Positions 48,341-58,748 of a stretch of 64,000 nucleotides of DNA are shown here, one piece after another; the first letter of the stretch is position 1; each line of letters begins with the position of its first letter. The notes under the pieces are model-generated. The model saw only the letters and a list, made by a program, of their open reading frames with translations. It had not been told where the DNA came from and ran no database searches. The DNA comes from Escherichia coli. GTDB lineage: Bacteria; Pseudomonadota; Gammaproteobacteria; Enterobacterales; Enterobacteriaceae. The translations under genes and the position numbers were made by a program. The DNA lies in NCBI RefSeq assembly GCF_030013205.1, contig NZ_CP122648.1. One strand, 5' to 3'.

Positions 48341-48385
48341 TGGCGCGCCCTGCAGGATTCGAACCTGCGGCCCACGACTTAGAAG
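48341..48385 (-). pseudogene. pauD: partial tRNA-Arg copy (pauD-like): 45-bp duplicate of the argU 3' end, i.e. prophage attachment-site repeat
   Basis: tggcgcgccctgcaggattcgaacctgcggcccacgacttagaag is identical to 58672-58716 (3' part of argU) and then diverges. Confidence 0.85.
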
Positions 48386-48808
48386 TTCCTAGAACGACAT
48401 TTTAAGTCAACAACTTACCACGCCATCTCTGCGCTCACACGTCCCACTACCTCAAAACATGTAAAGCCTTGCAAGCCATTGTGAGGCCTTATGTGTCTCA
48501 GTTTTGTCCCTCTTTTTTGTACTAAAAAACATAGTAATTGAGGATAAACCTCATGCTATTTTCGCTTATATGCCTCTAAAGGCATGGCACTTAAATAGAT
48601 AAAAGCACCACAAAAGCATAAAAAAACCACACAGTAAAACCACAATATGAAACAATAACAGATAATTAAACTAAAAACAGATAGCGCATTGTGATAATCA
48701 TTCAATACTAAACAAAATATAAACAGTGGAGCAATATGTAATTGACTCATTAAGTTAGATATAAAAAATACATATTCAATCATTAAAACGATTGAATGGA
48801 GAACTTTT

Positions 48809-49762
48809 ATGCGGGCGAAACTTCTGGGAATAGTCCTGACAACCCCTATTGCGATCAGCTCTTTTGCTTCTACCGAGACTTTATCGTTTACTCCTGACAA
48901 CATAAATGCGGACATTAGTCTTGGAACTCTGAGCGGAAAAACAAAAGAGCGTGTTTATCTAGCCGAAGAAGGAGGCCGAAAAGTCAGTCAACTCGACTGG
49001 AAATTCAATAACGCTGCAATTATTAAAGGTGCAATTAATTGGGATTTGATGCCCCAGATATCTATCGGGGCTGCTGGCTGGACAACTCTCGGCAGCCGAG
49101 GTGGCAATATGGTCGATCAGGACTGGATGGATTCCAGTAACCCCGGAACCTGGACGGATGAAAGTAGACACCCTGATACACAACTCAATTATGCCAACGA
49201 ATTTGATCTGAATATCAAAGGCTGGCTCCTCAACGAACCCAATTACCGCCTGGGACTCATGGCCGGATATCAGGAAAGCCGTTATAGCTTTACAGCCAGA
49301 GGTGGTTCCTATATCTACAGTTCTGAGGAGGGATTCAGAGATGATATCGGCTCCTTCCCGAATGGAGAAAGAGCAATCGGCTACAAACAACGTTTTAAAA
49401 TGCCCTACATTGGCTTGACTGGAAGTTATCGTTATGAAGATTTTGAGCTAGGTGGCACATTTAAATACAGCGGCTGGGTGGAAGCATCTGATAACGATGA
49501 GCACTATGACCCAGGAAAAAGAATCACTTATCGCAGTAAAGTCAAAGACCAAAATTACTATTTTGTTGCAGTCAATGCAGGTTATTACGTAACACCTAAC
49601 GCAAAAGTTTATGTTGAAGGCGCATGGAATCGGGTTACGAATAAAAAAGGTAATACTTCACTTTATGATCACAATGATAACACTTCAGACTACAGCAAAA
49701 ATGGTGCAGGCATAGAAAACTATAACTTCATCACTACTGCTGGTCTTAAGTACATCTTTTAA
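48809..49762 (+). CDS. ompT: outer membrane protease OmpT (omptin)
   Basis: 317-aa ORF MRAKLLGIVLTTPIAISSFASTETLSFTPDNINADISLGTLSGK… ending in the beta-barrel signature …AGLKYIF. Confidence 0.95.
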   Translation: MRAKLLGIVLTTPIAISSFASTETLSFTPDNINADISLGTLSGKTKERVYLAEEGGRKVSQLDWKFNNAAIIKGAINWDLMPQISIGAAGWTTLGSRGGNMVDQDWMDSSNPGTWTDESRHPDTQLNYANEFDLNIKGWLLNEPNYRLGLMAGYQESRYSFTARGGSYIYSSEEGFRDDIGSFPNGERAIGYKQRFKMPYIGLTGSYRYEDFELGGTFKYSGWVEASDNDEHYDPGKRITYRSKVKDQNYYFVAVNAGYYVTPNAKVYVEGAWNRVTNKKGNTSLYDHNDNTSDYSKNGAGIENYNFITTAGLKYIF

Positions 49763-49779
49763 CGAAGTTAACCAGATTC

Positions 49780-49815
49780 TCTCCCCGGTGGTATTGTATA
49801 ACCCCGGGGAATTTG
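49780..49815 (+). terminator. candidate intrinsic terminator downstream of ompT
   Basis: tctccccgg-…-ccggggaat inverted repeat followed by a T-rich tract (atttgttt). Confidence 0.5.
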
Positions 49816-49948
49816 TTTACAGTTACAAGTAGACAATATCCACTAATTTTGTAAGTATTTAACCTATGTCATAACGTGTAATCTCTTGCCGCAACACAAG
49901 ACCTCAATATATTCAAATTTTATCTTTATTCCGATATTCAGAGACACA

Positions 49949-56577: not shown

Positions 56578-56642
56578 TATCGTTCGTAATAAACTGATTA
56601 TTTATCTCATCACTGAATATCTTTATATAGTGAGGACTTATT

Positions 56643-57467
56643 ATGTCTCAGAACTTAGACGCAACCGCAATTAATCAAATCCATGCCCTTATTTCTGCTC
56701 AGGGTGTTAATGAAATTATCAGTAAGATTGGTGCCGATGCTGTGGCATTGCCTGAGAATTTCCGCATTCATGATCTGGAAAAATTTAATTTAAATCGCTT
56801 CCGTTTCCGTGGTGCACTTTCCACTGCCAGCATCGATGATTTTACCCGTTATTCTAAAGATCTTGCAGATGAAGGCACCCGCTGCTTTATCGATGCCGAT
56901 AATATGCGTGCCGTCAGTGTGCTTAACCTGGGTACTATTGATGAGCCAGGTCACGCAGATAACACTGCCACTCTCAAACTGAAAAAGACAGCACCGTTCT
57001 CTGCTCTGTTGTCTGTTAACGGCGAGCGTAACTCCCAGAAGTCACTGGCAGAATGGATCGAAGACTGGGCCGACTACCTTGTGGGCTTTGATGCTAATGG
57101 TGACGCCATTCAAGCAACAAAAGCGGCTGCGGCAGTCCGTAAAATCACGATTGAAGCAAACCAGACCGCTGATTTTGAAGATAATGACTTCAGCGGCAAA
57201 CGCTCCCTGATGGAGTCTGTCGAAGCGAAGACCAAAGACATTATGCCAGTGGCATTTGAATTTAAATGCGTTCCGTTTGAAGGTCTGAAAGAACGTCCGT
57301 TTAAATTACGCCTCAGCATTATCACTGGCGATCGTCCTGTACTGGTTCTGCGCATTATTCAGCTGGAAGCGGTGCAGGAAGAAATGGCTAACGAATTTCG
57401 TGATCTGCTTGTTGAGAAATTCAAAGACAGCAAAGTAGAAACCTTTATTGGTACTTTCACCGCCTGA
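56643..57467 (+). CDS. yfdQ: YfdQ-like prophage protein (unknown function)
   Basis: 274-aa [33 protein letters not shown]…. Confidence 0.7.
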
Positions 57468-57594
57468 TTTCATTACTGCAAATGCCCCTGCGGGGGCATT
57501 TATGGAAACGTAATTAACTCAATAATCACCGGATGGTGAGGGCTTCCTTTTACCAGAATTCAGCGCGGTGCAGTGCATATACGTGGAGAACAAA

Positions 57595-58656
57595 ATGTCA
57601 TTTATTAAAACTTTTTCCGGGAAGCATTTTTATTATGACAAGATAAATAAAGACGACATCGATATTAACGATATCGCGGTTTCCCTTTCAAATATCTGTC
57701 GCTTTGCCGGTCATCTTTCGCACTTCTACAGCGTCGCCCAACATGCGGTTCTTTGCAGCCAGCTGGTGCCGCAGGAATTTGCTTTTGAAGCGTTAATGCA
57801 TGATGCAACAGAAGCGTATTGCCAGGACATTCCCGCACCACTGAAACGCCTTCTTCCTGACTATAAACGGATGGAAGAAAAAATAGACGCCGTAATCCGT
57901 GAGAAATACGGGTTATCAACTCAGACAAAGGCAAAGCATCTTGCCATGATAAAGGCCATTCTCCGTGCTGCAGAACGCGACTGGAAGTGGCTGGAAAAAG
58001 CGCCTGTCATCAAGATACCAGCGGTCAGAAACAAGCGAGTCAGATGGCTGGAAAAGGAGGAAGCAAAACGCCTTATTGATGAGTGCCCCGAACCACTGAA
58101 ATCTGTCGTCAAGTTTGCGCTGGCAACTGGTCTGAGAAAGTCGAACATCATAAATCTGGAATGGCAACAAATCGACATGCAGCGACGAGTTGCCTGGGTG
58201 AATCCAGAAGAGAGCAAATCAAACCGCGCCATTGGTGTGGCGCTGAACGATACCGCCTGTAAAGTGTTGCGTGATCAAATAGGCAAGCATCACAAATGGG
58301 TGTTTGTACATACCAAGGCGGCTAAGCGAGCAGATGGAACATCAACGCCTGCGGTCAGGAAGATGCGCATCGACAGCAAGACATCATGGCTATCAGCTTG
58401 TCGTCGTGCAGGAATTGAAGATTTCCGTTTCCATGACCTCAGACACACCTGGGCAAGCTGGCTGATCCAGTCAGGCGTCCCATTATCTGTGCTTCAGGAA
58501 ATGGGCGGATGGGAGTCCATAGAAATGGTTCGTAGGTATGCTCACCTTGCGCCTAATCATTTGACAGAGCATGCAAGGAAAATAGACGACATTTTTGGTG
58601 ATAATGTCCCAAATATGTCCCACTGTGGAATTATGGAGGATATAAAGAAGGCGTAA
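57595..58656 (+). CDS. chimeric ORF: HD-domain phosphohydrolase N-terminus (YfdR-like) fused in frame to a tyrosine-recombinase catalytic domain (IntD-like)
   Basis: N-terminal 115 aa [15 protein letters not shown]…AGHLSHFY…[14 protein letters not shown] (HD motifs); the rest (…[19 protein letters not shown]…[10 protein letters not shown]…VRRYAHL…) is an integrase C-terminal domain with R/H-x-x-R/Y residues; ends 15 bp from argU. Confidence 0.8.
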
Positions 58657-58671
58657 CTGATTGAATTGTAA

Positions 58672-58748
58672 TGGCGCGCCCTGCAGGATTCGAACCTGCG
58701 GCCCACGACTTAGAAGGTCGTTGCTCTATCCAACTGAGCTAAGGGCGC
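58672..58748 (-). tRNA. argU: tRNA-Arg (anticodon UCU), argU
   Basis: Reverse complement reads GCGCCCTTAGCTCAGTTGGATAGAGCAACGACCTTCTAAGTCGTGGGCCGCAGGTTCGAATCCTGCAGGGCGCGCCA (77 nt, encoded CCA). Confidence 0.95.

Follow-up and report, generated by a model that had tools for sequence, protein, structure and literature searches.

The window, by which we mean the whole 64,000-nucleotide stretch of Escherichia coli DNA that was analysed (contig NZ_CP122648.1 of assembly GCF_030013205.1), carries a prophage-like element next to the tRNA gene argU, and this element is the subject of the present work. The gene argU, a tRNA-Arg(tct) with a UCU anticodon, was found with ARAGORN at 58672-58748 on the minus strand and is the only tRNA gene in the window. 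A 45-mer from its 3' end occurs exactly twice in the window, at 48341-48385 and at 58672-58716, whereas 100 shuffled versions gave 0 matches. A first-pass annotation, made from the sequence alone, had placed both argU and the 45-bp copy at exactly these positions. Once extended, the exact direct repeat is 47 bp long (48339-48385 and 58670-58716), so that the match between the att-like repeat and argU is exact over its full length. The same 47-bp repeat also bounds prophage DLP12 of K-12 and a prophage in ECOR29 (NZ_CP197071), and 47 bp is the published length of the DLP12 att duplication (Ramisetty and Sudhakari 2019, PMC6379469). Between the two copies lie 10.4 kb of lambdoid genes and cargo. 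The features are listed below, where HTH stands for helix-turn-helix, PGAP for the Prokaryotic Genome Annotation Pipeline, and a slash within a sequence marks a joint.

48339-48385, att repeat distal to argU, 47 bp, identical to the 3' end of argU with 2 further nt
48809-49762, plus strand, ompT, omptin outer-membrane protease of 317 aa (NCBIfam NF008222, 704 bits; 98.2% nucleotide identity to K-12)
49949-51433, plus strand, secreted alpha/beta hydrolase of 494 aa, S33/TAP-like (Pfam Abhydrolase_1 and Abhydrolase_4; phrog_20134)
51617-51829, minus strand, tail-fibre-assembly gene fragment, tfaX-like (PGAP; 97.9% to K-12 DLP12)
51979-52647, plus strand, class I S-adenosylmethionine-dependent methyltransferase, intact, orthologue of the K-12 pseudogene ybcY
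52702-52875, minus strand, tail-fibre-assembly C-terminal fragment, tfaD-like (PGAP; K-12 and ECOR29 alignments)
52867-52873, deletion junction 1, crossover at the TA of GGCTA/CCCTGG, the recurrent O-site breakpoint
52865-53104, minus strand, O-like replication initiator, N-terminal 79 codons with the winged-HTH domain (phrog_11896, phrog_391; Pfam HTH_36 in the intact gene)
53114-53452, minus strand, ymfM homologue of 112 aa (110/112 residues identical to the K-12 e14 cell-division inhibitor YmfM)
53449-54006, minus strand, ymfL, regulator in the cII position (NCBIfam NF041471; phrog_101)
54050-54250, minus strand, ymfT, cro-like HTH protein (PGAP; phrog_35)
54256-54323, OR, three predicted palindromic operators of the TGTACC-N5-GGTACA type, between ymfT and ymfK
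54341-55015, plus strand, ymfK, cI-like repressor of the LexA/S24 family, 224 aa, intact (phrog_4 and S24-type matches; 98.8% to K-12 e14)
55055-55082, plus strand, pL-like promoter TTGACA-16-CATAAT (11/12 matches to a promoter)
55230-55745, minus strand, moron of 171 aa, coiled-coil plus CxxC...CxxC, zinc-ribbon-like (phrog_1244 only)
55890-56200, plus strand, ymfH-like pseudogene, frameshifted (PGAP; e14 comparison)
56215-57467, plus strand, early-left genes yfdP and yfdQ (97.9% identical to K-12 CPS-53)
57595-58656, plus strand, in-frame chimera YfdR(1-107)-IntD(142-387) of 353 aa, with deletion junction 2 at 57914-57915
58670-58748, minus strand, argU tRNA-Arg(UCU) and att repeat (argU 58672-58748, repeat 58670-58716)

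The lambdoid genes named in the first-pass annotation are all present and in the order given there, namely a truncated integrase by argU, yfdP, yfdQ and a yfdR fragment, ymfK, ymfT, ymfL and an O-like HTH fragment. The same applies to the cargo, i.e. ompT, the secreted alpha/beta hydrolase, the class I methyltransferase and the moron. As in K-12 DLP12, ompT sits inside the att repeats.

DLP12 is said to have been described by Lindsey, Mullin and Walker in 1989 as a cryptic lambdoid prophage of K-12 at argU. It is annotated at 21.3 kb and includes ompT, appY and a ybcY pseudogene, in agreement with the first-pass annotation, which gives K-12 a DLP12 of about 21 kb with appY at this site. In the alignment with K-12, positions 46000-49762 of the window match nfrA-ybcH-envY, the att repeat and ompT (98.2%), positions 51693-52873 match tfaX-ybcY-tfaD' of DLP12 (97.9%), and the sequence from 57914 onward matches the intD C-terminus, argU and fimZ (98.7%). 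The identity of the arms to DLP12, about 98%, is the same as that of the flanking chromosome. Two segments, 49763-51692 with the alpha/beta hydrolase and 52874-57913, have no counterpart in K-12 DLP12, and no alignment was found between the window and positions 2059-18426 of the K-12 DLP12 locus (L003; exoD-renD-emrE-ybcK...rusA-quuD-nmpC-essD-rrrD-nohD).

The element thus shares with DLP12 the argU site, the 47-bp att duplication, the C-terminal part of an IntD-type integrase and the right arm tfaD'-ybcY-tfaX'-cargo-ompT. Unlike DLP12, it lacks the central 16 kb (xisD to nohD, with the insertion sequences IS3 and IS5) and has a 5-kb early region of e14/CPS-53 type instead. Furthermore, K-12 has ybcY as a pseudogene, a full-length integrase and appY as the cargo gene, where the element has an intact ybcY, a truncated integrase and the alpha/beta hydrolase. 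Given arms that are collinear with DLP12 at about 98%, the element represents an alternative outcome of decay within the argU prophage family to which DLP12 belongs. Of the first-pass description as a compact mosaic cryptic prophage replacing the DLP12 arrangement, the non-functional and mosaic character stands, and so does the different, heavily deleted content; the replacement has to be refined, as both arms are collinear with DLP12. The hydrolase fills the appY slot beside ompT, and the two genes are alternative cargo. Among 5,426 complete E. coli genomes, 1,225 have the hydrolase allele and 827 the appY allele, and therefore K-12 does not represent the majority state.

The early region is shared with two other prophages of K-12. 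Positions 52871-55164 are 98.8% identical to ymfK-ymfT-ymfL-ymfM-oweE' of e14, and positions 56196-57915 are 97.9% identical to yfdP-yfdQ-yfdR' of CPS-53. The att sites and integrases of e14 and CPS-53/KplE1, which are located at icd and argW, differ from those of the element. Both e14 and KplE1 are still able to excise in K-12.

ECOR29 has, judged by annotation, a lambdoid prophage of about 46 kb that appears complete and is bounded by the same att repeats. The order of its genes is int, xis-like, yfdT/S/R/Q/P, ymfK/T/L, O-like, yfdN, methyltransferase, RusA, KilA-N, DUF968 and QuuD, followed by a porin, lysis genes, terminase through tail fibre, tfa, methyltransferase, tfa', hydrolase and ompT. 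It has the same cargo (ompT, hydrolase and methyltransferase) and the same immunity and early genes as the window, and the two are collinear over 48696-52873 (99.1%), 52867-57915 (99.5%) and 57914-58900 (99.7%). An acetyltransferase gene and an HTH gene form a 1.66-kb insert between the att repeat and ompT in ECOR29 (locus L004, 3168-4825), and 182 bp of differing sequence occupy this place in the window (48513-48696).

Two segments of the ECOR29 prophage are missing from the window, one of 32.8 kb (L004 9001-41845) and one of 1.5 kb (L004 46893-48415). At junction 1 the terminal 174 bp of the tfa gene adjoin the initial 240 bp of the O-like gene. The crossover is within TACC, a microhomology of 4 bp, and 6/7 bases around it are common to both parents. 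The O-like gene is thereby left without its ori iterons and C-terminal domain. Junction 2 lies at the TA of GGGTTA/TCAAC with a 2-bp microhomology, and the yfdR site used here is GGGT-TA-CCC.

For determining the distribution of the element, a 10.46-kb query was used. Seventeen complete E. coli chromosomes match it from end to end at 99.9-100% identity, and every one of them comes from swine (the ETEC40xx, ETEC17xx and ETEC63xx series; O139:H1 P15-25 and W13-16; EC556/571/581; K_EC180). In two further genomes the coverage of the query is at least 80%, and in the next best among the matches listed it is 57-78%. Junction probes of 201 bp each were also searched among the 5,426 complete genomes, and complete matches to either junction came from these 17 genomes alone, which makes the double deletion a clonal marker.

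We are confident in reading the element as an immobilised remnant of the DLP12 family at the argU 3' end, inherited vertically and descended from a phage of about 46 kb and ECOR29 type via two deletions. The parent phage would have combined a DLP12-type integrase and right arm (tfa-ybcY-tfa-cargo-ompT) with an early region of e14/CPS-53 type. An illegitimate deletion of 32.8 kb would then have taken everything from codon 80 of the O-like gene up to the last 58 codons of tfa, and another of 1.5 kb the 3' part of yfdR, yfdS, yfdT, xis and the first 141 codons of the integrase. What is left in the window has neither xis nor an intact int, an intact O gene, an ori, Q, lysis or structural genes. 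As the N-terminal half of the integrase, xis, the ori and the O C-terminus, Q, and the lysis and structural genes are lost, excision, replication and lytic growth are excluded. By its gene content the element is locked in place, able neither to excise nor to replicate, lyse the cell or make particles. Intact are ymfK, OR, the pL-like promoter, ymfT, ymfL and ymfM, together with the cargo (ompT, hydrolase, methyltransferase and moron).

No observation contradicts the derivation by two deletions, though it comes with some qualifications. ECOR29 is a proxy for the ancestor and not the ancestor itself, and its 1.66-kb insert between att and ompT is absent from the window. The completeness of the ECOR29 prophage was judged from annotation alone. 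Expression, immunity and SOS inducibility of the module that was kept would follow from its identity to e14.

A small self-sufficient mobile element, such as a satellite or a minimal prophage, might instead have integrated at argU in the present form, and the compact size, the bounding att repeats and the intact immunity module would fit this. Such an origin is nevertheless very improbable. The first 141 residues of the integrase are missing and a YfdR fragment is fused in their place, xis is absent, and the O-like and tfa genes are cut mid-gene. Furthermore, the breakpoints fall within genes of a collinear full-length prophage of more than 99% identity, and the arrangement is limited to one set of 17 swine genomes. 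The chance that the segment is simply a K-12-type DLP12 with the same gene content is practically nil, since alignment refutes it: the integrase C-terminus, tfaD'-ybcY-tfaX', ompT and the att repeats are indeed about 98% identical to K-12, but xisD, exoD, renD, emrE, ybcK-ybcO, rusA, quuD, nmpC, essD/rrrD/rzpD, borD, nohD and appY have no counterpart here, and the two segments named above are unmatched.

As a remnant, the immobilised DLP12-family element is ordinary, one more member of a well-known kind of argU prophage. Among the prophage loci of E. coli and Shigella, that of DLP12 is described as the most prevalent, at 74% of 638 strains (PMC6379469; PMC10057817). With argU as the most commonly occupied prophage site of E. 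coli, differently decayed alleles are expected there, and the remnant itself matters little. The allele serves mainly as a clonal marker of the porcine enterotoxigenic E. coli (ETEC)/O139:H1 lineage, and it is another case in which ompT, a secreted hydrolase and a predicted SOS-responsive immunity/division-inhibitor module have outlasted decay. The part worth pursuing is the breakpoint in the O-like gene.

The O-side end of junction 1 (...CGTCGCCAGGGTA/) is within one base of the end of oweE in e14 (...CAGGGT/GATGG). In complete genomes and IMG/VR, the breakpoint CAGGG-TA-ACCG(C) in the O-like gene was found in about 20 independent deletions with different partners. About 14 distinct joints at the TA keep the left half of the site and 6 keep the right half. 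The loci concerned are the following.

Window, 52867-52873, deletion joint at the TA
e14 (L005), 8404, deletion joint one base short of the TA
CPS-53 (L006), about 8086, deletion joint at the TA
Further loci with O-site joints: L007-L009, L025, L055, L063, L072, L119, L130-L138 and L152-L154

The partner is tfa in the window, terminase in e14 and the region upstream of yfdP in CPS-53. In strain H2 the O cut is joined to the 3' end of the DUF968 gene, in PEC41 upstream of a holin gene, and in LR-33 about 86 bp upstream of the KilA-N gene, with about 2.5 kb missing relative to ECOR29. The partner is a tail-fibre gene in FXCREC180 and stfP in G4/9. The complementary half, starting from the TA, is yfdO of K-12 CPS-53 (...CTCATCA-TA-ACCGCAATG), where the partner lies 18 bp upstream of yfdP, and a right half is also present in NCTC9038 with its partner in ymfL. 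In K-12, e14 oweE thus keeps the N-terminal half and CPS-53 yfdO ('oweS') the C-terminal half of the O-like gene. All O-site joints that could be mapped are same-orientation deletions.

An unbiased sample was made of the first 120 loci carrying the left anchor, and the ends of homology inside the O gene were mapped. The homology stops at nt 239 in 5 loci, each joined to a different partner. One further event has its end at nt 617, again at a TA, and a single iteron-variant allele, shared among loci, accounts for an end at nt 373. Under a uniform model with about 700 positions, the calculated probability of 5/6 events at one pre-specified position is of the order of 1e-13. A survey of all junctions in the 120 loci counts about 8 illegitimate deletions, of which 4-5 belong to this TA type. 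Among the complete genomes, 1,581 have an intact O site and 417 have half-site matches only; many of the sampled half-site rows among these 417 are K-12 laboratory strains.

For joints with both parental sites known, the crossover does not extend beyond the TA: the preceding base comes from the left parent and the following base from the right parent. The partner sites resemble the anchor on both flanks (CCGGA-TA-ACCGG, GGCCG-TA-TCCGG, GCGGA-TA-CCGTGG, CCGGT-TA-TCCCG and GCAGG-TA-GCCAG), and 30 partner half-sites give the consensus TA-N-C-C/G-G-G, with the C at position 2 and the G at position 4 each found in 19/30. The best-matching partner is CCTCCGGA-TA-ACCGGATCC in rusA (about position 39474 of L004). 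This site is itself recurrent in IMG/VR, with 7 different left partners and 6 different right partners; the rusA search could find breaks at that position only and shows recurrence, not excess. The O hotspot is situated about 55 bp upstream of six ori iterons spaced at 15 bp.

The O-gene end of deletion 1 is non-random, being a breakpoint that recurs with nucleotide precision. As far as we found, it is undescribed, as a search of the literature on oweE/ymfN/yfdO or on an O-gene deletion hotspot gave no prior description.

One explanation of the endpoint in common with e14 and CPS-53 is chance, or selection for keeping the N-terminal domain of O, with no site-specific mechanism. A trapped prophage could plausibly be under selection against a working replication initiator, deletions mediated by microhomology are common, and O fusions recur at other points (about aa 233, 253 and 285). 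In addition, the e14 joint is an exception that relies on CCAGG(G)T microhomology and not on the TA itself. We consider this explanation unlikely all the same, since about 20 different partners are joined at the same TA in both directions and the illegitimate breaks in the unbiased sample cluster at one position. Selection could favour a linker window of about 200 bp, but not a single dinucleotide. The half-site common to the partners and the second recurrent site of the same form, in rusA, likewise speak against it.

A more specific proposal, which we put forward as a tentative possibility, is that lambdoid prophages with an oweE-type O gene are repeatedly 'grounded' by a sequence-specific cut-and-rejoin, so that deletion 1 of the window, oweE of e14 and yfdO of CPS-53 would be products of one undescribed mechanism. 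The reaction would act at quasi-palindromic CCGG-N-TA-N-CCGG-like sites, of which the prime one would be in the O gene and the second in rusA. A dimeric enzyme would cut with a 2-nt stagger at the TA, and non-cognate ends would then be rejoined. Such an enzyme is suggested because the ends are anchored and nucleotide-precise in both directions, only deletions occur, the partners are alike on both flanks and the crossover is limited to the self-complementary TA. The enzyme could be phage-encoded, and a DUF968/HNH-like protein may be one candidate; the DUF968 protein of the intact prophage has a weak Pfam match to HNHc_6, which makes it a candidate only. Survivors that lost the replication and lysis genes would be selected, and the bias to deletions downstream from O may be attributed to this selection.

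Should this proposal be true, the long-annotated K-12 pseudogenes oweE and yfdO would be complementary products of one mechanism. The 'random decay' of prophages would have a mechanistic, testable component if they are inactivated through a small number of motif-defined sites that are precise to the nucleotide.

Int-promoted deletions of lambda that end at the att core were reportedly described by Parkinson and by Davis and Parkinson in 1971, and deletions at the M13/pC194 nick site reportedly by Michel and Ehrlich in 1986. The O-site deletions resemble both in having one nucleotide-fixed endpoint, many variable partners that look like the fixed site, and deletions only. Unlike in those anchored deletions, no recombinase or nickase is known to act at CAGGG-TA-ACCG. 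Both halves of the site are recovered here, and a one-directional rolling-circle nick model is disfavoured for this reason.

Several other candidates were compared with the hotspot. Among Pin, IS30, RpnA and the att cores, no known enzyme was found with a recognition site that matches CAGGG-TA-ACCG or CCGG-N-TA-N-CCGG. The pix sites of the Pin/Din invertase in e14 (AAACC-AA-GGTTT) are unlike the hotspot, as are the att cores of the argU, icd and argW prophages, and RpnA has no sequence specificity. Hot-spot targeting by IS30, which gives a 2-bp duplication, was rejected because an insertion sequence would stay at the joint, and LHS in lambda is also unlike the hotspot. Insertion alleles at the O-site TA were sought as a trace of a mobile agent, and none was present among about 150 loci. 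Restriction of the BstEII type (GGTNACC) would fit the O and yfdR sites but not the partner sites; there are nine GGTWACC sites in the reference region, and recurrence was examined for two of them, O and yfdR. Hairpin-driven slippage was rejected as the fold is no better than in shuffled controls (z about -0.5 to -0.8). The motif alone is not the determinant either, since deletion 2 used the perfect GGGTTACCC site in yfdR, and breaks do not recur at this site in IMG/VR.

A number of related joints were observed. The protein fusion P0024 breaks at the same rusA codon as the recurrent rusA site. K-12 DLP12 has a deletion of its own, aaaD'-'tfaD (21.6 kb relative to ECOR29), which crosses at T-TA-T (L003 18160-18162), CACCCT[TAT]CTGG being joined to CGCCAGA[TAT]TCCTGC. 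The chimeric proteins P0009-P0042 fuse the O-like protein at about aa 233, 253, 285 and 293 to fragments of Q, sheath, baseplate, DUF968 and invertase proteins. Several of these other fusion points have two different partners and may be further recurrent breakpoints; the DNA there (GTC/A, CTG/A) is not TA-centred. The six iterons (GTCAGATTTTGAC type) are inside the O-like gene, 293-408 nt from its start (L004 41674-41789), and encode a low-complexity linker, SDSDPSKSD. Iteron-number variants occur among the loci, with the homology break at nt 373.

The immunity region that was kept has the lambdoid layout, with the S24/LexA-type ymfK divergent from the cro-like ymfT and predicted operators at OR and at an OL/pL site. 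The OR and pL-like sites reported in the first-pass annotation were recovered: besides the three operators of OR, two further predicted operators of the OR type at 55061-55098 overlap the pL-like promoter. A terminator-like hairpin (55027-55046) follows ymfK ahead of this promoter. An intact ymfM comes after ymfL, downstream of a predicted repressor-controlled rightward promoter, as in the e14-type module. In a preprint, ymfM is given as an SOS-inducible division inhibitor of e14 (bioRxiv 10.1101/2020.11.19.390815). From the identity to e14 and the intact open reading frames (ORFs) and operators, YmfK would be expected to hold the module silent and to confer homo-immunity. SOS/RecA-stimulated cleavage of YmfK would derepress ymfT-ymfL-ymfM and express the division inhibitor YmfM as in e14. 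The ymfM ORF, although intact, is not called by PGAP in the matching RefSeq genomes, where an overlapping DUF4222 ORF (53094-53273) is called instead.

The moron belongs to a 650-bp cassette (55165-55815), which e14 lacks, and in this cassette it is flanked by a 26-nt inverted repeat (55203-55228 and 55757-55782). Its gene is antisense to the pL-like promoter, at the place where lambda has rexAB. No match to the moron was found in Pfam, PADLOC or NCBIfam, and PADLOC assigned no defence system to the moron, the methyltransferase, YfdP/Q or the YfdR-IntD fusion protein. This chimera keeps the tyrosine-recombinase catalytic domain, while the arm-binding domain and most of the core-binding domain are gone, and PGAP calls only the integrase part, as a pseudogene. 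The alpha/beta hydrolase starts with an N-terminal signal-peptide-like sequence, and it also matches the PADLOC candidate model C3a206 ('TAP-like protein').

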